Below, in pieces: positions 21,141 to 35,244 of a stretch of 57,403 nt of DNA; the stretch's first letter is position 1, and every line of letters begins with the position of its first letter. The notes under the pieces were generated by a model. The model worked only from the letters and a program-made list of their open reading frames with translations. It made no database searches and was not told where the DNA came from. The DNA is from a virus (taxonomy: Duplodnaviria; Caudoviricetes). A program made the position numbers and the translations under genes. The stretch spans positions 1 through 57,403 of IMG/VR virus record IMGVR_UViG_3300046170_000265; one strand, 5' to 3'.

Positions 21141-21316
21141 TGCTGCACCTCCGCCAGATCCCTGACAATCGCGCCGAGCTGGTAATAAGCGTCTGCGCTG
21201 CGGGTGTAATTGGTTGAAGACATTCTCTCTTGGTCACCACGACGATTGTTCATGGCCTCATCGAGGTCGTCCATTGCACGTTGAATTTCCTTAATTGCTC
21301 TCGTTAAGGGGTCCAT
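21128..21316 (-). CDS. Hypothetical protein
   Basis: Overlaps its neighbours in the operon; helical composition. Confidence 0.55.
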   Translation of the reverse strand: MDPLTRAIKEIQRAMDDLDEAMNNRRGDQERMSSTNYTRSADAYYQLGAIVRDLAEVQQWRS

Positions 21317-22038
21317 AGTATGATCTCCTGTATTTCGTCATGCCAATCGGTCCAGCGCAGTATCCTGGCTAGCCTGGCTTGTTGAATTGCGTCGTCACGG
21401 GTCATTCCGGCTTTGATGAAAGCTTGCTCGACTAATGACCAAGCTGGCCTCGAGCCGAGTATGGTCTCAGCCTTTTTTGGGCCGATCCCAGGCACACCTT
21501 TGTATCCATCAACTGGATCACCGGTCAGAACCTGGGTAAAAAACGCCCTATCAGCATCTTCTTCGCTGATCTCTAAGGTTTCATTGGTCATTGGTCGATA
21601 TAACCGGCCTGGTATTGTCCTGAGATCCTTATCGTCTGATACCATGATGCATTTGCCCTGGTTGACTGGCATGGTCGCCAGTATTCCAAGGCAATCATCT
21701 GCTTCCAGGCGTGGTTTGCGGAATGTCTTGAAGTTGTCTTCAACCCAGTCGCAAAGGGCCACATAACCAACAGGTTTGCGTGTGCCTTTACGATTGGATT
21801 TATATGACGGGTCAACAACCTTGCGAAAGTTAGCCTTGTGATCAGATAGACAGCAGACGTAATCCTTTACGCCCAGCGTGTCTGTGATCTTGGTAATTTG
21901 CGTTTCGAAGAGGTTCTTGGCTTCTTTGAGATCGGTCCATAAGGACCAGATATCATCGCCCATGTCATATTCCTGCTCAGCTGCTGTGGCAGCTCGAAAC
22001 ATCAGGATGTCAGTGTCGAGGGCTAAGAACATCTTCAA
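21304..22038 (-). CDS. 5'-3' exonuclease (T7 gp6-like)
   Basis: YKSNRK, LEADD, SDDKD and GDPVDGYKGVPGIGPKKA motifs. Confidence 0.92.
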   Translation of the reverse strand: MKMFLALDTDILMFRAATAAEQEYDMGDDIWSLWTDLKEAKNLFETQITKITDTLGVKDYVCCLSDHKANFRKVVDPSYKSNRKGTRKPVGYVALCDWVEDNFKTFRKPRLEADDCLGILATMPVNQGKCIMVSDDKDLRTIPGRLYRPMTNETLEISEEDADRAFFTQVLTGDPVDGYKGVPGIGPKKAETILGSRPAWSLVEQAFIKAGMTRDDAIQQARLARILRWTDWHDEIQEIILWTP

Positions 22039-22360
22039 TCCCCTCCATGGCCGCTAGGCCGTCCTGGGTAATCATCCAGACATTGCCGTAAGTGCTTTCA
22101 CCGATTTTGGTTGAGATCAGGCCATCACTGGCACAGATCCCAATTTCAGTGGCTGCCATCCTGGCAAAGTCACTTTTGGTGGTAAATGGGCTTTGCCTGG
22201 CTTTTGCCAGGGTCGACCAGATAGCCATTAGGCCCTCTAAATCTTCATCAGTGGGTGTCTGCCCAAGTGGCTCCGACTGAGTATTCGGCGTCGATTGGGA
22301 TTGAGAAGTTGAAGTATCTCCCCGCTTCTTGCGCCATTCGTCTAGCGAGATTACCGACAT
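22010..22360 (-). CDS. 116-aa protein overprinted on the 3' end of the polymerase gene, starting MSVISLDEWRKKR
   Basis: AAAGGAGA RBS 8 nt before the ATG at 22360; motif, S/T/Q linker and folded-looking C-terminal domain. Confidence 0.65.
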   Translation of the reverse strand: MSVISLDEWRKKRGDTSTSQSQSTPNTQSEPLGQTPTDEDLEGLMAIWSTLAKARQSPFTTKSDFARMAATEIGICASDGLISTKIGESTYGNVWMITQDGLAAMEGIEDVLSPRH

Positions 22361-24011
22361 GATGTGGGTCTCCTTTCGTTTGAATTTGAACCTCGTCGTG
22401 AACCCATGCGATGATGGTTGCGTCGAGTTGTTGGTGTTTGATTTCTTCGTCAATGAGCTTGATCCAGGCTTTAGAGATCAAAGCTGCGGCTGATTGCAGT
22501 AAGACATTCAGGTGTGCATGACCTCGAACCGGCAGTTTCCTGCCGTCCAGGCCAATAAGATGGCCCCTGCTCTCGACAACAGCCTTGAGTTGCCGTGTCA
22601 GCTCTTTGAAGGCTGGGTTGCTTCTGTAAAAGGCGTCACGCAGCTGCCGGCCTTCTTTGGCCGAGCCGCCGACAACCTCACCAAGCTTGCTATCGCCACC
22701 GCCGAAAATGAGGCAATAAATGGCGGTCTTAGCCTGATTTCTGTCAGTTAGACCCATGTCGTGCATATTCTGCGTGTGAATATCGCCCTGCATGATCGTG
22801 TCAGCGTATTTGCCACCATCCTGTAGGAAATGTGCCAAACAGCGCAGCTCGATGCCTGAAAGATCAGATCCGACTAAGGTGAAACCATTTGGAACTGTAA
22901 ACAGCTGGCGCACCTCAAGCCCGTATTCGGCTCGAGTTGAGACAACTTGCTGGAGATTTGGTGCAAAGCTCGATGCTCGACCAGTTACGGTACCCATTGG
23001 ATTGATGGTGTGGCGTAACTTACCATCACCGTCGACCAACGCCATATAGGCGTATTTGCCTTCTGCCAGTGCGCCTAACCGCTTTTGCAGCATAAACGAC
23101 CGGCTCAGCTTTTGAGCTTCTGGGTAGCGCAGCTGCGCCAATATTGTTTCATCGATCTTGGCGTCGCCCTGAACTGTGAAATTCTTGGGCTTCCAGCCGT
23201 ACTTTTTGCGTAGGCAGTATTCAATGTGCTTGCGTGAATTTGGATTGAAGACGACTTCACGCTGTTTGATAAAAGGTACACCTTTTTCGTAACCTAACTT
23301 GCTGTTGTTAACCTTTGGTATGAACTCTTCTTCTAGATACCAATTAGGAAACAATGTCTGCAGCTCATCTTCGATCGTCGACTGTTCCAATGACAACTGC
23401 GCGTATAGCGAAGCTGCCTTGTCTGTGTCGAAAGTCCAACCGGCATTACCAATGCGGCTGCATAACTCAGCGACTGTATGCTCAAATCTAATTGCTTTGA
23501 ATGACCACTTGTGTGGGGCTAACGCCTCCCACAAAACGTGGTTAACCTTGACGTCCTGAAGACAATAGTCAGACATGGATTGCGTCCATTCTGACCAATC
23601 TGTTTGCTCACCAAAATCACCTTTGTGTATGCCAAGACGTACACCCCACGCCTTTAGGCTGTGACTTCCGTACATTTTCTTTGGGAAATCGTCAGCATGA
23701 CGTGGGGTTGCGTAGTCTTCATTCCTAAGATCGGAATGGATCAACCTGGACAGGACAAGTGTGTCTGTCAGCAGGATGTCGGCATGATTGAAGGTGGGAT
23801 AGACTTTTTCCAGCGCAGGGATATCAAAGGCCAAGATATTATGGCCAATCAGCTCCTTGGCTGACTGCAGCAACTCAACGCCAGCCTCGATCTCCCCTGG
23901 GTTAAATACCCAGGTTTGATCGGGGTTATCGGCGTTAACAGCTGCTATGCAGTGGATTTTGGTAAGGTGGTTCAGGAAGCCGTCAGTTTCGACATCGAAA
24001 ACCAAGCGCAT
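22248..24011 (-). CDS. Family A DNA polymerase (T7 gp5-like)
   Basis: Exonuclease motifs DVET, GHNILAFD, YCLQDV; polymerase motifs DLSGIELR, AKTAIY, VHDE. Confidence 0.96.
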   Translation of the reverse strand: MRLVFDVETDGFLNHLTKIHCIAAVNADNPDQTWVFNPGEIEAGVELLQSAKELIGHNILAFDIPALEKVYPTFNHADILLTDTLVLSRLIHSDLRNEDYATPRHADDFPKKMYGSHSLKAWGVRLGIHKGDFGEQTDWSEWTQSMSDYCLQDVKVNHVLWEALAPHKWSFKAIRFEHTVAELCSRIGNAGWTFDTDKAASLYAQLSLEQSTIEDELQTLFPNWYLEEEFIPKVNNSKLGYEKGVPFIKQREVVFNPNSRKHIEYCLRKKYGWKPKNFTVQGDAKIDETILAQLRYPEAQKLSRSFMLQKRLGALAEGKYAYMALVDGDGKLRHTINPMGTVTGRASSFAPNLQQVVSTRAEYGLEVRQLFTVPNGFTLVGSDLSGIELRCLAHFLQDGGKYADTIMQGDIHTQNMHDMGLTDRNQAKTAIYCLIFGGGDSKLGEVVGGSAKEGRQLRDAFYRSNPAFKELTRQLKAVVESRGHLIGLDGRKLPVRGHAHLNVLLQSAAALISKAWIKLIDEEIKHQQLDATIIAWVHDEVQIQTKGDPHHVGNLARRMAQEAGRYFNFSIPIDAEYSVGATWADTH

Positions 24012-24433
24012 TAGCGGTTGTCGCCATTTCCACGCAATTGGTCTCGTCTGTCTCGATCCTGCAGCTTTTCTAGGTTCAGCTCAGCAATTTCTTCGAGCTG
24101 GTAACCAATGTCGTTTGCTACAGCTGTGACATACCAAAGCACGTCACCAAGCTCTTTTGCGATTTCGTGGCGCATCCTGGAACGCATCTCGATCATCGGT
24201 TCTTCCAGTGCAGTGTCATCGTGTTCACCGTCACGGAAGTATTTCTTCAGTTTTTCTGCGACTTCGCCGGCTTCGCCAACTAGACCAAGCACTGGATAAA
24301 CCAATGCACCTGGGTAGATGGCTGTTTGCATTGCCGATACGGCATAATCCTCGAAAGTCATGGGAAACGTATCCCAGTCTTCGAAATTATCGTTATCAGC
24401 ATCGAAATCATCGAATAGGTCACGCATGGTCAT
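24011..24433 (-). CDS. mazG: MazG-like nucleotide pyrophosphohydrolase
   Basis: GLVGEAGEVAEKLKK, KELGDVLWY and C-terminal GNGDNR. Confidence 0.9.
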   Translation of the reverse strand: MTMRDLFDDFDADNDNFEDWDTFPMTFEDYAVSAMQTAIYPGALVYPVLGLVGEAGEVAEKLKKYFRDGEHDDTALEEPMIEMRSRMRHEIAKELGDVLWYVTAVANDIGYQLEEIAELNLEKLQDRDRRDQLRGNGDNR

Positions 24434-26378: not shown

Positions 26379-26806
26379 GCGTCTTCTCCTTCTGTTAGCC
26401 ATTCGGTTGGGATTGATTTGTTCGCGTACTCAAACCCATGCTTGTCGCACCACTGGGCATATGTAGTTGGGCTGCCTTTGTAGAGACGGGCATTTTGGTT
26501 TGAGAACACGAAACGAATGTCGATTTCAGGGTGCTGATCACGGATAAGCAGATGCTTTTGTCGGTCGTCGACTAGCCAGCGGCCCTTGGTTTCGACATAA
26601 AAAAAGCCGCCTGGCTTAGGCAGCTTAAAATCTGGGCGATAGGTGGATGATCGCTCCGGCCAGAGATAACTGATCTTATCCTGTTCGTATTGAACTATAA
26701 GACCAGCGTCCTCGATTTGGCGGGAAACACTGTCTTCTAAGCCAGAGCGGTAGCCATTCTTGATGGCCCGTTTTCGTAGCTTAGAAATTGTATGCTTGAC
26801 CTCCAT
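26375..26806 (-). CDS. Endonuclease I / Holliday junction resolvase (T7 gp3-like); start uncertain
   Basis: YRSGLE, YRPDF, VETKG, HLLIRDQHPEIDIRFVFSN. Confidence 0.92.
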   Translation of the reverse strand: MEVKHTISKLRKRAIKNGYRSGLEDSVSRQIEDAGLIVQYEQDKISYLWPERSSTYRPDFKLPKPGGFFYVETKGRWLVDDRQKHLLIRDQHPEIDIRFVFSNQNARLYKGSPTTYAQWCDKHGFEYANKSIPTEWLTEGEDA

Positions 26807-27350
26807 CACCTTCTGCAGCTGGTTGATTGTCGTTAGCTGCTGATAGGTTGTCATTGGCGGCTACAAAGCCACCCTCTTCAGCTGCGAATGAAACACTTGA
26901 GGTTTCACCTTGAGACAGCTCAACGATCTGGACGCCAGCAAGTTGCAGTGAAACACCTTTGTTTCCACCTGCGACATAGGGGTAAATCGTGCCAGCGAGT
27001 TTCAATGTAGAGCCGCCGAAGATTGGCGGAACATTGTTTTCGCTGATCAGGTTGCCCTGGCTGTCCATGATCTTTGGTCTGAATTTCGATTTGGTAACGA
27101 TAATCAGCTGGCCTGTATCCTCATCCGTTTTGAACGGGAGGCGTACATTTTGCGCTTCTTTGGTGCCAAATTCGTTGTTTGCTGCTTCCTGGACCGCTTT
27201 GATCAGGTCCGCAGCATCAGCTTTGTCCAGCTTCAAGTTGACCTTGAACTGGCCGTTGCTGTCGAATTGAAAGTCTGCCTTGTTTAACCAAGGGTACATT
27301 GCGATGCCTTTAGCGGTGCTAAAGGTCAGTTTCTTCTTCGTGTTTGCCAT
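26781..27350 (-). CDS. ssb: Single-stranded DNA-binding protein (T7 gp2.5-like)
   Basis: GIAMYPWL, GGSTLK, GVSLQLAGVQI, acidic tail ending in Phe; AAGGAG RBS. Confidence 0.85.
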   Translation of the reverse strand: MANTKKKLTFSTAKGIAMYPWLNKADFQFDSNGQFKVNLKLDKADAADLIKAVQEAANNEFGTKEAQNVRLPFKTDEDTGQLIIVTKSKFRPKIMDSQGNLISENNVPPIFGGSTLKLAGTIYPYVAGGNKGVSLQLAGVQIVELSQGETSSVSFAAEEGGFVAANDNLSAANDNQPAAEGDGGQAYNF

Positions 27351-27638: not shown

Positions 27639-30518
27639 TCATGTCATGAAGTAGTCGCTTTCGCGAACCTTCGTAATGTCCAGATCGCCTTTGGCCGGTA
27701 CTTCTGGCCATTTCACTATCCGGAGTTTCAAGGCATCCAGTTCAGCATTAAGACCCTCGAGCAACCCTTCATCCTCTTCATGTTCAATTAGTTCTTGAAG
27801 GTTGTGAATTTGCTCCTTGATCTCGAGGCTGTCTGGATCTGGGTGTCTTGCTTTGCACTGCTCGAGAAGGTCGCTGTATAGACAATATCCGTCATACATC
27901 TCGACCATTGCGTCTCTGGCAGCATCCCGCATCACCTCAGCATTACCACAGGTAGTGGCATAGCTGTCGTGAACGACCATAAGATCAGTAACCCCATGAT
28001 CAGCGCAGCGTAAGGCAGTTAACATCAACAATGTGCTATCCATCGAATGGATTATGTTGGGACTTACTGCACTGACGCTTTTATTAGGATCAATGCCGGG
28101 CATTGTTTTGGTGTAGCTCATCAAGCCCCGAGATTTGATAGCCTCGATATCATGGCTGTAAAGAAACACCCGACGCCTTGCCGACTTATTGTTCCGATAG
28201 TATTGATGCACCGGAAAGTTGAGTTTTGGCGTTTTGAAAGTGAGATGTAGATCGGCGTCAACCATGATCTTGGCGCAAGCTTGGAAAAATTCCATGCCAT
28301 CTTTGGCTGACTTGATCACACTTTCGATTGCGTCTTGACTGATACCAGCTAAGTAATGAGATGCCTGGTAACCGCCATCTTCAGGGAATGGATGCTTCTC
28401 ACGTTCACCAGCGCGAACCTCAAGATCCATTTCGTCCATCCAGTCTTTTTTGAACTGCTGGGCGAAGCCATACTTGCGGCTCGAATAAGCCCAAACCATG
28501 GCCGGTCTCTTGATGACACTCCGGTTTAGGTACTTTTTGCCTTTTGGATTTTCATCAGTCGGCTCGACCTCATAGGACAACAGTACTCTTGCAATGTCGA
28601 TTTCTTGATCACGCTTCAATCTTCTGTGTGAAGCAGTCTTTTTATAATCACGCTTTGCCTTGCGTTTCCTTTTCTCGAGAGCGTCCATTTCATCTAGATC
28701 GTCAGCTTTTTCAGCCATGATCCTTTGATATGCTTTGTGCGCTTCCCGATCATTGTCATTCGCAGGGTCAAGCTCTTGATTTGCAAGTTTCTCAGCCTTG
28801 TCAGCTTCGATCATTTCTTCTGCAACCACGAGACAAGCCTTGTACAGGTCGTTAGGCTTATCTTCTGAGCCTTTGACCAGGTTAACTAGCAATCCGTCAT
28901 CTTCGTTCAAGCTAGCAGCAGCGTAATGCTGGATGCCGGATTGAGTTGCATCGACGGCAACAGGTAAACCAGACCAATGGTCCTTGCCTTCTTGCTGGGC
29001 AACCATGTATTCAGCCAAGTCACGGCAAGCAGCTAAGAACTGGAATGGATCGTCAGCCTTGCTCCAGAAATCAAATGACGCCTTGTAATCGATGCCGACG
29101 TTGACCACTTCTTCAAGGTTTTCTTCCACCCATTTGATCCGAGTGTCGTAGCTCTCTTTATCCAAGCCATAGGTGTTTGAAACCTGCAGAAGGATCCATG
29201 CTGAATTTTCCTCTGTTACCTTCGTCTTGTTGGCAAATAGAAACATTGCCCTCAAGAAATCTGTATTGTGGTGGCCAAAATCGCTGACGTGATAGACACG
29301 CCCTCGCCGGTCCCAATTGTGTGGCATCCAGAACTGATCATATTGAGCAAGCTTCCTAGCTTCATTCAATGTACGGCGGATCTTTGACCGGTTGGCCCGA
29401 GCTTGCCTGTTGACGGCTTTGCATCGAGTTAGATTTCGCATATGAGCGATTTGATCATCTTTATCGAGGTCATCGTAGTTCACGCCTTCGTCGAGCTTTG
29501 GAACCTCAACAGTTTTGGTGTTTGGAAACTTTTTGACCAAACGGCCCTTGCCCGTCTTGCGGACCCAATCGACAGCATCGACCACAAAGTCATTAACGGT
29601 GTAAGGCACCTGTTGCAGGAGGTTTAAAGCCTCAACAGCCTTGTCTAAGCTGCCATCTCGCAATCCTGCATCAAGATCCTTACGCTGCTCTGGGCCAGCG
29701 TGTTTGACCATTGGCGTCATGATTGCCAGGCGAGGTGTTATGTATGGACCGATTTGATCCAAACCCCATGGTCTTGGCATTACATTCATTGGTGCAAGGT
29801 ATGGCGACATACGGTCAAGATCAGCAAACTTTTCTTCGATCTCAGCTTCTACCTCGGGACGCAGGATCATGAATTTTTCTGGGAAGTCTTTCGTCTCATC
29901 CGCTAGATCTTTGTGCGTCATGAACACGTCTTTACAAGCAGCTTCGACCACTGACAGTAAAAATGAGCCGACAGTCTGTTCTAAACCGCCATCATCATCT
30001 TCCCACTTCTCGAAGGTAAAGCCTCTTTTGGCTGCCTGACGCAGGACGTAATCTTGACGTTTTTCAACCTTGTCACTTTGCAACGTGGCGTTTTGTGCCA
30101 GCCGCTTTGCTAGGCGGTCACCAGCACGATTTGCTTGAAGTCTGTGTTCAAAATCCAGACACTTGATCGCCTGGCCGACCCTGTTTGCCAGCGTATTGTA
30201 AGTCCATTCTTTCTCATGGCCATCAAGACACTGCATGAAAGCGACATAAGCGACATCAATCTGTGGTAGTTCCGCAAGTGGCTCAAGCCATTTGGCGTTT
30301 TGACCGCGGTTAGCACGGGTTTGCTCAGACTGGCTTACAATCTCATCCATGATGGGCTGAATGTATTGTTCGATTAGTTTGACAGATACAACACTGGCAG
30401 ACATATCAAGGCTCTGGCGGCGGTCTCTAGAGCGAGCTTCGCCCCGATCAACTATGTTGACCTGCTCATGCTCCAAAGCATCTTTTCTGGTCCTGGGTGT
30501 ATTGTCGTTTGCTACCAT
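27639..30518 (-). CDS. Single-subunit T7-like RNA polymerase (959 aa)
   Basis: DRRGRVY, PFQFLA, motif A DATQSGIQHY, motif B RSVIKRPAMVWAY, PNIIHSMDS, motif C VHDSY. Confidence 0.96.
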   Translation of the reverse strand: MVANDNTPRTRKDALEHEQVNIVDRGEARSRDRRQSLDMSASVVSVKLIEQYIQPIMDEIVSQSEQTRANRGQNAKWLEPLAELPQIDVAYVAFMQCLDGHEKEWTYNTLANRVGQAIKCLDFEHRLQANRAGDRLAKRLAQNATLQSDKVEKRQDYVLRQAAKRGFTFEKWEDDDGGLEQTVGSFLLSVVEAACKDVFMTHKDLADETKDFPEKFMILRPEVEAEIEEKFADLDRMSPYLAPMNVMPRPWGLDQIGPYITPRLAIMTPMVKHAGPEQRKDLDAGLRDGSLDKAVEALNLLQQVPYTVNDFVVDAVDWVRKTGKGRLVKKFPNTKTVEVPKLDEGVNYDDLDKDDQIAHMRNLTRCKAVNRQARANRSKIRRTLNEARKLAQYDQFWMPHNWDRRGRVYHVSDFGHHNTDFLRAMFLFANKTKVTEENSAWILLQVSNTYGLDKESYDTRIKWVEENLEEVVNVGIDYKASFDFWSKADDPFQFLAACRDLAEYMVAQQEGKDHWSGLPVAVDATQSGIQHYAAASLNEDDGLLVNLVKGSEDKPNDLYKACLVVAEEMIEADKAEKLANQELDPANDNDREAHKAYQRIMAEKADDLDEMDALEKRKRKAKRDYKKTASHRRLKRDQEIDIARVLLSYEVEPTDENPKGKKYLNRSVIKRPAMVWAYSSRKYGFAQQFKKDWMDEMDLEVRAGEREKHPFPEDGGYQASHYLAGISQDAIESVIKSAKDGMEFFQACAKIMVDADLHLTFKTPKLNFPVHQYYRNNKSARRRVFLYSHDIEAIKSRGLMSYTKTMPGIDPNKSVSAVSPNIIHSMDSTLLMLTALRCADHGVTDLMVVHDSYATTCGNAEVMRDAARDAMVEMYDGYCLYSDLLEQCKARHPDPDSLEIKEQIHNLQELIEHEEDEGLLEGLNAELDALKLRIVKWPEVPAKGDLDITKVRESDYFMT

Positions 30519-30585: not shown

Positions 30586-30768
30586 CTAAGCAGCTTGGGT
30601 CTTGTTGTTGTCGTTAGCTGCATTAGCCAACAGGTCGCTAAGGTTTACCCGAGGTGTCTGGTGCTTCCATGGTGTTACTCCGGTTAGCACCTGATGCATC
30701 ATTTCTTCAGCATCTTGGTTGTAGTTTTGGACCTGGGTACCTTTGTTGTTGTCATTTAACATCATCAT
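30586..30768 (-). CDS. Small early protein ending in ssrA-tag-like AANDNNKTQAA
   Basis: AGGAG RBS; lies downstream of the phage promoter at 30811-30828. Confidence 0.7.
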   Translation of the reverse strand: MMMLNDNNKGTQVQNYNQDAEEMMHQVLTGVTPWKHQTPRVNLSDLLANAANDNNKTQAA

Positions 30769-32919: not shown

Positions 32920-35244
32920 ATGAAAATCCCACAACAAATGACTAAGCGACAAAAAGACAGGCTTACGGTTCTGAATTCAAAAGGCATCACCGCTCTTCAA
33001 ATAGCCAAAATACTTGAGCTTCCTTTAGTGTTGGTTGAGGAAGAAATTGAAACGCGAAAGCAAAATCTTTTGAAGAAAAGATGGACGAAAGACCAGTCAA
33101 ATGAAGCGTTAGACTTATATGTCAAAAACGTGTCTCTAACTGAAATTGCAAACCTAACTGGTAAAACTAGAGTGCAGATAGCAAGGCACTTCAGAGATAT
33201 TAGGGATGACTGGGTTAACGAAGGCACAAAATACAACTATTTGAATGTTGATTTGAGAGTGAAATTAGCAGCTAAAATTGAACGAAGGGAAAACACTGAC
33301 AAGCGGCCAATAAGAATGGCTAGAGCGAGGCTCCCTGACAAAATACGGAGCAAGCAGCTAGCTGGTCTCGCAGAAACACTCGCTTATAAAGAAAATGTGC
33401 TGCTTGATGAATGGTGGCAGTTTGGCGTCCTAAACAGCGTTGAGGATGACCGCCTTAGCCTGACTGCAATCTCGAAGGACAACAACAGGGTTACATTAAT
33501 CAAGAAGTACACGCCGAACTGGAAAGAAGTTCTGCTGAAACTGAAAGGCTTGATGGGTGAATTTGTTTCTGTCCGTGTAATTCAAAATTACTTACCAGTT
33601 GTTAATGCCGGAGCAGGAACTAAGAAAGATGTTGTCTACGAACCACGGATGGTTGACGTAACGGCATCTGAAGGCATCATGAGCCTCGCAAAGTCCTTCC
33701 CAAGTGACACCCGAAACCAGTCTTTCATTGGAAGGTATAAGTGGTTGCGCTTTGGCGAGTTTGAAGCCAAGTCAACCAGCGAACACATTCTCATTGGAAA
33801 TGTTGATGGTCGGGTCATGGCTTTCCGAAAGGGCAGCATCAACAGCGTTCTAGAGCAACGTCTCACGGACACTTTAGATATGGCTGAAGGTCAATCTATC
33901 TTGGTTTGTGTAGACCAAAAAAATCCAAAGCCTGACGGTGTTTTAAGCGTGTTTGTTGACGCACACATCGAAGAGGAAGGCATTGAGACTTACAACGAAG
34001 ACTACAATACAATTGTAGAAACGATTGCTCGCACAAAGGATGAAGCTGCTGAGGCTAACTTGACAGTGCAAAAAAAGCACAAAGAGATACAACAGCAGCT
34101 ACTAGAGAAAGAAGTGCAACATACAAAACAGATTACAGAACTGAAGTTTGAGTTCGAGCGTGAAACACAAGAAGTACAAGCACAGATAAAGGAACAAACA
34201 GGTGCTTTTAGACGCTTAGAAGCAGAATTACAAAGAGAGCTGCTAGATTACAATGAACAAGAGAGGTTTCTGCGCGACACAAAAGAAGGGCTTCAACAGT
34301 ACAAGGTAGGTGTTCTAGCAGCGGCTGCAGACCAAACAGGGTCGGGCAGCACTTTTCAAATGAAAGGGCTGAAGGTAATACAAGGCGAAGAGGCTCAGTG
34401 GCATGATTTCAATGAGGCAATCAAGGCATTTGAGGGGAGTGGAGGTGAAGAAGCACAAGAGCTTTACAAAGAAATCCAAGACCTAAAAAGGGAAGTGTTA
34501 AAAGCACATAAGAATGCAGCTGCTACTTCAAATACCTCTGAAGAAGAGGAAGGGTTTGAGCCACCAGAACCAGATTACATCCTCAACCCTGAAGCAGACC
34601 TCTCGCTTTTTGATGAAAAGCAACCAGACCCGGACAGCCCAATGATGGCAATGATGCGAGAGATGATGGCAGAAGTGCAGAGTTTAAAAAGCTCGCAACA
34701 AAGTTTTATTGAAGCATCAGCAATGACAGAGTTTGAAGTTCAAGAGTTACGTGACTATTCCCGTGCAGAAGACGAAGAGTTGAGTACAGACAACGCAAAA
34801 ACAGAAGCTGAACACAAAGACATACTGGAGAATGTGAGAGAGTTTGTCGGAAAGCCACCAAGGCAACTAAAAGTGTACGTTGGTCACGCTCGGAATACAC
34901 TATGTCTTCGCGCCGGTATCGACCTTACAAGGGAAAAACCTGACAACAGGATTGATGTTCAGTTTACCAAACACATTGGTAAATCAACGTTTCTGGTTCA
35001 CTTCCCCAAATACAATCATGACGCAATGCTATCCATTGTTCGAGACTCGAAAGACAAAAACGATTTTGCAGTAAAATCATGCCTTCATCTTGATGGTGAA
35101 AGGTGGAAAGAAATTGAACAGGAAGTCACAGGACAAGGTGGTAAGCGTCTGACAGGCAAAAAGCCCAAACAGTGGTTAGCATATCGCAAACAGATAATTG
35201 CAAAGCTAGAAGCACCTAAAGCGAAAAAAAAGGCCAGAGGATAA
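32920..35244 (+). CDS. Uncharacterised 774-aa accessory protein: tandem HTH, duplicated domain, coiled coil, C-terminal domain
   Basis: Only long plus-strand ORF in the window, AT-rich, between att and the endolysin. Confidence 0.85.
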   Translation: MKIPQQMTKRQKDRLTVLNSKGITALQIAKILELPLVLVEEEIETRKQNLLKKRWTKDQSNEALDLYVKNVSLTEIANLTGKTRVQIARHFRDIRDDWVNEGTKYNYLNVDLRVKLAAKIERRENTDKRPIRMARARLPDKIRSKQLAGLAETLAYKENVLLDEWWQFGVLNSVEDDRLSLTAISKDNNRVTLIKKYTPNWKEVLLKLKGLMGEFVSVRVIQNYLPVVNAGAGTKKDVVYEPRMVDVTASEGIMSLAKSFPSDTRNQSFIGRYKWLRFGEFEAKSTSEHILIGNVDGRVMAFRKGSINSVLEQRLTDTLDMAEGQSILVCVDQKNPKPDGVLSVFVDAHIEEEGIETYNEDYNTIVETIARTKDEAAEANLTVQKKHKEIQQQLLEKEVQHTKQITELKFEFERETQEVQAQIKEQTGAFRRLEAELQRELLDYNEQERFLRDTKEGLQQYKVGVLAAAADQTGSGSTFQMKGLKVIQGEEAQWHDFNEAIKAFEGSGGEEAQELYKEIQDLKREVLKAHKNAAATSNTSEEEEGFEPPEPDYILNPEADLSLFDEKQPDPDSPMMAMMREMMAEVQSLKSSQQSFIEASAMTEFEVQELRDYSRAEDEELSTDNAKTEAEHKDILENVREFVGKPPRQLKVYVGHARNTLCLRAGIDLTREKPDNRIDVQFTKHIGKSTFLVHFPKYNHDAMLSIVRDSKDKNDFAVKSCLHLDGERWKEIEQEVTGQGGKRLTGKKPKQWLAYRKQIIAKLEAPKAKKKARG

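Follow-up and report, generated by a model that had tools for sequence, protein, structure and literature searches.

An N-terminus overprinted on the DNA polymerase gene of marine T7-like phages resembles the SspB tail and may dock a Gp5.7-like protein on ClpX

The locus between DNA polymerase and exonuclease

We analysed the complete IMG/VR virus record IMGVR_UViG_3300046170_000265 over its whole length of 57,403 bp, referred to as the window. The record represents a T7-like phage, which encodes a single-subunit RNA polymerase (phrog_414, E 1.6e-148) together with a Gp2.5-like SSB and an endonuclease. These three genes and those for a MazG protein, the DNA polymerase and the exonuclease all lie on the minus strand, and no tRNA genes were found in the window. 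The sole plus-strand ORF of more than 250 aa in the ORF list, in a genome otherwise coded on the minus strand, is located at 32920..35244 (774 aa) and had no PHROG match at E up to 0.001.

Judged by the DNA polymerase, the nearest isolates are podophages of Roseobacter and Pelagibacter with 41-45% identity, and going by these the host of the phage is probably an alphaproteobacterium. A blastn comparison of the polymerase-to-exonuclease stretch with isolated phages gave no match, and no cultured phage with the N-terminal extension described below was found. The Roseobacter phages CRP-804 and CRP-125 were considered as relatives and set aside, the small genes 3' of their polymerases being unrelated.

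An ORF of 116 aa starts within the DNA polymerase gene and is overlapped at its 3' end by the start of the exonuclease gene. The features of the region are as follows.

22248..24011, minus strand: family A DNA polymerase (T7 gene 5 type), 587 aa; PF00476, E 5e-44
22369..22376, minus strand: Shine-Dalgarno (SD) sequence of the long form, eight bases, purine-rich, within the polymerase gene
22358..22360, minus strand: ATG of the 116-aa long form, from sequence and conservation in relatives
22010..22360, minus strand: 116-aa ORF; ATG at 22360, stop at 22010-22012
22248..22360, minus strand: dual-coding overlap with the 3' end of the polymerase gene, 113 nt
22325..22354, minus strand: residues 3-12, decapeptide like the C-terminal tail of alphaproteobacterial SspB; 20.4 bits with the position matrix
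22229..22324, minus strand: residues 13-44, polar flexible linker coded mostly over the polymerase C-terminus; from pLDDT and suppressed synonymous change
22226..22237, minus strand: internal ATG (22226-22228) with an SD-like GAGG (22234-22237), from sequence; possible start of a short, ancestral-type isoform
22010..22228, minus strand: residues 45-116 and stop, Gp5.7-like winged-helix domain; from phrog_1334, hhalign, 5LGM and the fold
21304..22038, minus strand: 5'-3' exonuclease (T7 gene 6 type); PF02739; phrog_107, E 3e-62

A preliminary description of this DNA had proposed that a strong ribosome binding site (RBS) inside the polymerase gene opens a second frame overlapping it by 113 nt. 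The ATG at 22360, the RBS at 22369-22376 and the overlap were all confirmed, with a spacing of 9 nt from the GGAG core to the ATG. The new frame is the +1 frame, in which the second codon position is the wobble position of the polymerase. The same description had divided the product into a peptide, a flexible tether and a folded domain, and the AlphaFold2 model of the 116-aa protein (54 sequences, mean pLDDT 83.7) agrees with this division. Residues 38-112 form a winged helix and a C-terminal helix with pLDDT above 95. The linker (about residues 13-44), which is rich in Ser, Thr, Gln and Pro, is modelled with pLDDT of about 50-75, falling below 50 at residues 18-24, and residues 18-37 are disordered. 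Residues 6-17 are drawn as a helix of low to modest confidence carrying a basic cluster. The protein is thus laid out in three parts, namely a conserved N-terminal peptide, a disordered tether and a compact domain. Neither Pfam (E up to 0.1) nor NCBIfam gave a match to the ORF, and no PDB sequence matched residues 1-44 at E up to 10.

A homologue of T7 Gp5.7

The C-terminal 72 aa match phrog_1334 (E 1.8e-12), of which T7 gp5.7 is a full-length member (E 4.5e-40). Comparison of the family profile with T7 gp5.7 in hhalign gave a probability of 94.7% over 62 columns (E 5.9e-8), and the profile also matches PDB entry 5LGM_A, the NMR structure of T7 gp5.7 (E 8.9e-7). The top Foldseek matches are all winged helices of the MarR/PadR type, although weak ones (best E 0.011, none at or below 0.001). 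The gene occupies the slot between DNA polymerase and exonuclease of a T7-like phage, as T7 gp5.7 does. We conclude that the 72-aa domain is a homologue of T7 Gp5.7 and belongs to this winged-helix family. The compact domain of the preliminary description is present; its homology to T7 Gp5.7 had been missed. In PHROGs, phrog_1334 is labelled 'unknown function' even though T7 gp5.7, a characterised inhibitor of host RNA polymerase, is a member (L318:3151-3357); the two are now linked. One look-alike cluster is automatically labelled 'HNS binding protein', a name that was not adopted because a comparison with T7 gp5.5 showed no relation.

In published work, T7 Gp5.7 is described as a protein of winged-helix-like fold. 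It binds DNA as well as host RNA polymerase, whose activity at T7 early promoters it represses (PMC5569994), and its contact with sigma region 4 inhibits the holoenzyme containing sigma-S (bioRxiv 10.1101/262279). PMC5569994 also states that changes at R24, S35 and W52 unfold the protein, while F18 and L42 are required specifically for transcription inhibition in T7. The three structural residues align with R67, S78 and W95 of the window protein, all of them invariant here, whereas F18 and L42 align with Thr61 and Lys85, so that the inhibition residues are not kept. As aligned, this loss bears on whether the target specificity is shared and not on the homology. The window protein and T7 Gp5.7 thus have in common a homologous winged helix of 70 residues, the gene slot and the structural residues. 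They differ in that T7 Gp5.7, with 69 aa, lacks an N-terminal extension, while the window protein carries one of 44 residues, has Thr and Lys in place of F18 and L42, and has only a putative target in the host of its phage. Binding of host RNA polymerase or sigma region 4 by the Gp5.7-like domain of this phage is predicted by homology.

Short homologues of 68-69 aa, which start at or just after the polymerase stop, are found in Rhizobium and Limnohabitans phages and in T7. The ancestral form of the family is about 69 aa long and starts just 3' of the polymerase stop. The family comprises 775 members at E up to 0.001 among 1.84 billion representatives, and we examined the best 149 of the 775, a length count from which the chimeric sequence P0002 was excluded. 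Fewer than 15 residues precede the domain in 71 of these best 149, 15-39 in 40 and at least 40 in 38. Many in the middle group begin inside the linker and appear to be truncated gene calls; the family thus has a long form that gene callers often truncate. The 38 long forms among the best 149 of 775 comprise 25 with a peptide like that of the window, nine with one recognisably related to it (judged by eye) and four with an unrelated one.

Conservation of the overprinted N-terminus

A protein-guided scan of IMG/VR yielded eight related loci. Conservation of the RBS and of the peptide motif across related phages, which the preliminary description had wanted checked, was borne out by seven of the eight, in which the frame, the ATG, the SD/RBS and the N-terminal peptide are kept. 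In the eighth (L011), the second frame contains stops and the start lies just 3' of the polymerase stop. All seven close relatives have the ATG at the same place or one codon earlier, and all seven keep the six-base SD core. More widely in the clade, a Glu codon supplies an SD-like GAGG, and 36 of 37 cases use the same synonymous codon for it.

We then compared the codons of the polymerase genes of the window and six relatives, counting identical codons only at sites with an unchanged polymerase residue. In the overlap, made up of the last 37 codons of the polymerase gene, 328/451 codons were identical (72.7%), compared with 2831/6928 (40.9%) in the rest of the gene. Synonymous change is held down only over the overlap. 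When the gene was scanned in 565 sliding windows, the ten best all covered the RBS and the overlap, the window coinciding exactly with the overlap ranking 14th. The second frame is also conserved as protein: its amino-acid identity in the overlap was 404/756 (53.4%), whereas 264 control windows averaged 32.2% and did not exceed 41.3%. In the first part of the peptide, conservation is slightly higher in the second frame than in the polymerase frame (57.5% versus 56.5%).

A pattern scan with the decapeptide of the window itself, and hence selecting on the motif, returned at least 119 contigs. Among the matches listed, the decapeptide is N-terminal in 119/119 contigs, 35 polymerase codons follow it in 118/119, and the second frame is open in all 114 complete motif-selected ORFs. 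The codon comparison was repeated on 58 non-redundant motif-selected contigs, using the last 24 polymerase codons, which the search pattern had left free. Here, 12761/20008 codons were identical (63.8%), the 434 windows outside having a mean of 43.0% and a maximum of 55.9%, and the 30 best windows all fell in the last 55 columns. A search with the domain alone, which involves no selection on the peptide, found 255 relatives, and the best 80 of these 255 were kept. An extension reaching into the polymerase gene is present in 80/80 of them. Homologues that start downstream and lack the motif, which the preliminary description had considered damaging to its proposal, were seen only among distant relatives (Rhizobium, Ralstonia and Limnohabitans phages, and T7) and not in the clade of the phage. 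Among called proteins (55 database hits and the ORF of the window), 45/56 begin at the peptide.

Purifying selection thus acts on both frames, and the start and RBS of the new frame are conserved, the combination by which overprinting is recognised. The N-terminal extension is real and is maintained by selection in both frames. The locus is a clean and widespread case of gene birth by overprinting, in which hundreds of marine phage contigs retain a functional N-terminus coded in an essential polymerase's +1 frame.

The N-terminal peptide, the SspB tail and ClpX

The tail of alphaproteobacterial SspB is the part that binds the N-domain of ClpX. The preliminary description had named the motif as one that ends alphaproteobacterial SspB, and the genomes bear this out. 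The back-translated tail pattern found at least 120 stretches in a collection of species genomes. In all of the 120 matches listed, the distance to the end of the ORF is at most 5 residues (0 in 70, 1 in 47, 3 in one and 5 in two), the record titles of the matches listed are almost all alphaproteobacterial, and 10/10 sampled ORFs carrying the pattern are SspB (PF04386, E up to 6.6e-41). Of the 151 alphaproteobacterial genomes sampled, 143 yielded an SspB, and the tail ends 30/30 of the best SspB loci, picked by domain score alone. Some SspB tails carry up to 11 more residues after the motif, and a free C-terminus is therefore not needed.

A looser, degenerate pattern that also allows Trp at the aromatic position was run against the 151 alphaproteobacterial genomes (about 430 Mb). 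Single occurrences were found in 69 genomes and more than one in none, and the reversed control gave 0 occurrences. The coordinates, compared by eye, place 68 of the 69 matches at the 3' end of SspB, the lone exception coding Cys at the aromatic position. Position 7 is Phe in 68/68 host SspB tails, and Trp occurs in none of the looser-pattern matches. The unpublished genome G041 is the basis of no claim made here. The ClpX N-domain is nearly invariant across the Alphaproteobacteria: aligned for 30 sequences, it shows no change in 26 columns.

From 29 of the 30 SspB tails, which were chosen independently of the phage, we derived a position matrix. With it, residues 3-12 of the window protein score 20.4 bits, rank 1 of 76,153 six-frame positions in the window, with the next at 11.9 bits; the score is below the range of real SspB tails (22.5-35.1 bits). 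The peptide matches the SspB tail at 9/10 positions, allowing Ile for Val and Trp for Phe. We expressed the variation within the phage family as residue counts and as likeness to the peptide of the window. In the best 80 of the 255 domain-selected relatives, a hydrophobic residue occupies position 2 in 54 cases and Thr or Glu does so in 26; at position 7, Trp is found in 63 and Ala, Gln or Val in 17. Both positions are nearly fixed in SspB, and both are kept in the window peptide. N-termini diverging still further were seen among the cluster representatives.

By these comparisons the phage peptide closely resembles the alphaproteobacterial SspB tail. In both proteins (SspB, PF04386), a ten-residue motif stands at a protein terminus on a long, flexible, disordered tether. 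The order of the parts is reversed, however, with the motif C-terminal in SspB and N-terminal in the window protein, which also has Trp where SspB tails have Phe at the aromatic position and lacks the SspB domain: no PF04386 match to the SspB substrate-binding domain was found in the ORF or anywhere in the phage record. In E. coli SspB, the adaptor has a comparable layout, a tail peptide on a tether binding the ClpX N-domain (PMC9963277). A complex prediction with two copies of the ClpX N-domain and residues 1-40, run without controls, scored 0.15 against a mark of 0.32 and weighs neither way.

We favour the reading that the peptide docks on host ClpX, to which we assign a probability of about 0.55. 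It is favoured by the specificity of the motif in host genomes, by its coincidence with an independently conserved peptide, by the tether, by the protein-binding domain behind it and by the probable alphaproteobacterial host. It is weakened by the N-terminal place of the motif, by Trp for Phe and by the variation of positions 2 and 7 in the best 80 of the 255 relatives.

The same variation, at positions nearly fixed in SspB (26 and 17 of these 80), and a score below those of true tails fit the main alternative, in which the extension is indeed translated and under selection but the role of its peptide does not involve ClpX. The extension would then be an amphipathic basic arm providing one more contact, be it to RNA polymerase, a sigma factor, DNA or a partner from the phage, its likeness to SspB being due to coincidence or convergence. 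The basic cluster on the modest-confidence helix modelled at residues 6-17 is consistent with such an arm, as is the binding of both DNA and RNA polymerase described for T7 Gp5.7 in PMC5569994. Coincidence is harder to reconcile with a motif that, in about 430 Mb of alphaproteobacterial DNA, occurs in 68 of 69 cases at SspB ends, the remaining one coding Cys at the aromatic position, and with a match that falls exactly on the one peptide of the protein defined independently by conservation. A polar linker of about 30 residues between arm and domain would also be unusual for a DNA-binding arm. We regard this alternative as a serious one, though short of an even chance.

The long form is the conserved product, since a possible internal start, consisting of an ATG and an SD-like site, is present in only three of seven phages (the window and two of six close relatives), and a credible one is absent from the other four relatives. 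These three internal starts, a protein atlas that holds only the short form for this record (from residue 45) and the shortness of the distant homologues are what can be said for a further explanation, in which the short form, started at the ATG at 22226-22228, is the sole product and the conservation of the overlap reflects an RNA or regulatory element at the 3' end of the polymerase gene, for instance one acting in translational coupling. It is very improbable, given the four relatives without a credible internal start, the conservation of the second frame as protein well above its maximum elsewhere, the retention of the upstream ATG and SD, and a frame that stays open both in the complete motif-selected ORFs among the matches listed and in the best 80 of the 255 domain-selected relatives. 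Some of the phages may make the short isoform as well. That the second frame is reached by ribosomal frameshifting, to give a polymerase-Gp5.7 fusion by analogy with the 5.5-5.7 fusion annotated in T7 from two pieces, is scarcely credible, because the conserved ATG and SD at a fixed place favour independent initiation and the one database protein that starts in the polymerase frame and goes on in the second, P0042, is known from one contig only, where it may be the result of an assembly indel as well as a hint of frameshifting. The T7 fusion (phrog_17900) resembles the present case in that a Gp5.7 module gains an N-terminal addition by unconventional decoding; its product is annotated as joined from two pieces, whereas the addition to the window protein stems from a start codon newly gained in the polymerase gene's +1 frame.

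In one large clade of marine T7-like phages, the start codon of the Gp5.7-family gene has moved about 112 nt upstream into the polymerase gene, overprinting a new N-terminus of 44 residues composed of the 10-residue peptide and a flexible polar linker. If it docks as proposed, the peptide would take over from the SspB tail on the zinc-binding domain at the N-terminus of host ClpX and so couple the Gp5.7-like module to ClpXP. The sequence comparisons suggest, in other words, that the phage plugs a Gp5.7-like protein into the protein-degradation machine of its host.

The identity of the module leads to a different expectation of what an adaptor would deliver and, should the peptide dock, makes delivery of a host transcription protein the most attractive reading. 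Given docking, an adaptor-like hand-over of the cargo of the module, most plausibly host sigma factor or RNA polymerase by analogy with RssB and sigma-S, is the consequence we would put first, at somewhat under even odds. Docking could tentatively serve mainly to compete with SspB and other users of the ClpX N-domain, and it is rather unlikely that it would bring about a timed removal of the phage protein itself. RssB is the adaptor that delivers sigma-S to ClpXP in E. coli; to our knowledge, sigma-S is absent from the Alphaproteobacteria. If the favoured reading is right, RssB and the window protein would both be sigma-binding modules tethered to ClpX, but RssB has no homology to the window protein, whose delivery role is only putative. 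The most elaborate version, which we consider improbable, is a device for targeted degradation: the Gp5.7-like domain would seize host sigma factor or RNA polymerase and the copied tail, a docking peptide made de novo by overprinting, would hand the captive to ClpXP, so that host transcription would be shut off by destruction rather than by mere inhibition, while phage proteins bearing ANDN would meanwhile occupy SspB.

No phage protein with a copied SspB tail came up in the literature accessible to us. The closest published cases are SPO1 Gp53 (PMC6873191) and whole SspB homologues of phages. The former is described there as an adaptor-like protein of ClpCP that the phage encodes and resembles the proposed arrangement in that a protein of the phage acts like an adaptor on a Clp unfoldase of the host; it differs in the protease (ClpC), the host phylum and the protein, and it does not act through a copy of a short host tail. 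Among the latter is gp039 of Erwinia phage RAY. Two proteins on viral contigs (L192:3362-3799, minus strand, and L197:4418-4852, plus strand) match PF04386 (E 3.5e-12 and 3.7e-13) and end in the alphaproteobacterial tail motif. These homologues share with the proposed docking the use by a phage of the SspB-ClpXP route, and those of L192 and L197 also share the tail motif, but they are whole SspB domains, whereas the window protein has the tail alone, grafted on another protein. If the peptide does dock, it would be the first phage case found in which the short docking tail of a host adaptor is copied, and the established assays of ClpXP and SspB from Caulobacter would allow a direct test of it.

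An exact host-type tail motif was also observed in an unrelated protein of 111 aa, present in the same form on two viral contigs of 122 kb and 78 kb (L195:1759-2091, plus strand, and L198). The motif is internal there and follows a stretch rich in Pro, Thr and Glu, and the protein had no match in Pfam. It may be a coincidence, as one or two chance matches were expected in that scan.

The preliminary description had also connected the ORF with ANDN mimics, a link that is plausible as context only. Five ANDN sites occur in the 66 ORFs against 0.41 expected, and none of 2000 shuffles reached five; ANDN is nevertheless not among the most enriched four-residue words of the proteome, other words being more enriched. 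The T7-like RNA polymerase (27639..30518, minus strand) has ANDN at residues 3-6, right after the first two, and again at residues 586-589. Just upstream of its gene, an ORF of 60 aa (30586..30768, minus strand) has ANDN within its last 11 residues and two terminal alanines, an end that we take to be reminiscent of the ssrA tag. The Gp2.5-like SSB (26781..27350, minus strand; phrog_112, E 2.5e-32) has two ANDN motifs (26858 and 26837), 7 residues apart, in a C-terminal tail that ends in Phe, as the tail of T7 Gp2.5 likewise does. Finally, the MazG-like protein (24011..24433, minus strand; PF03819) has an acidic N-terminus with an ANDN-like motif, Asp replacing Ala, near 24394, followed by Phe.
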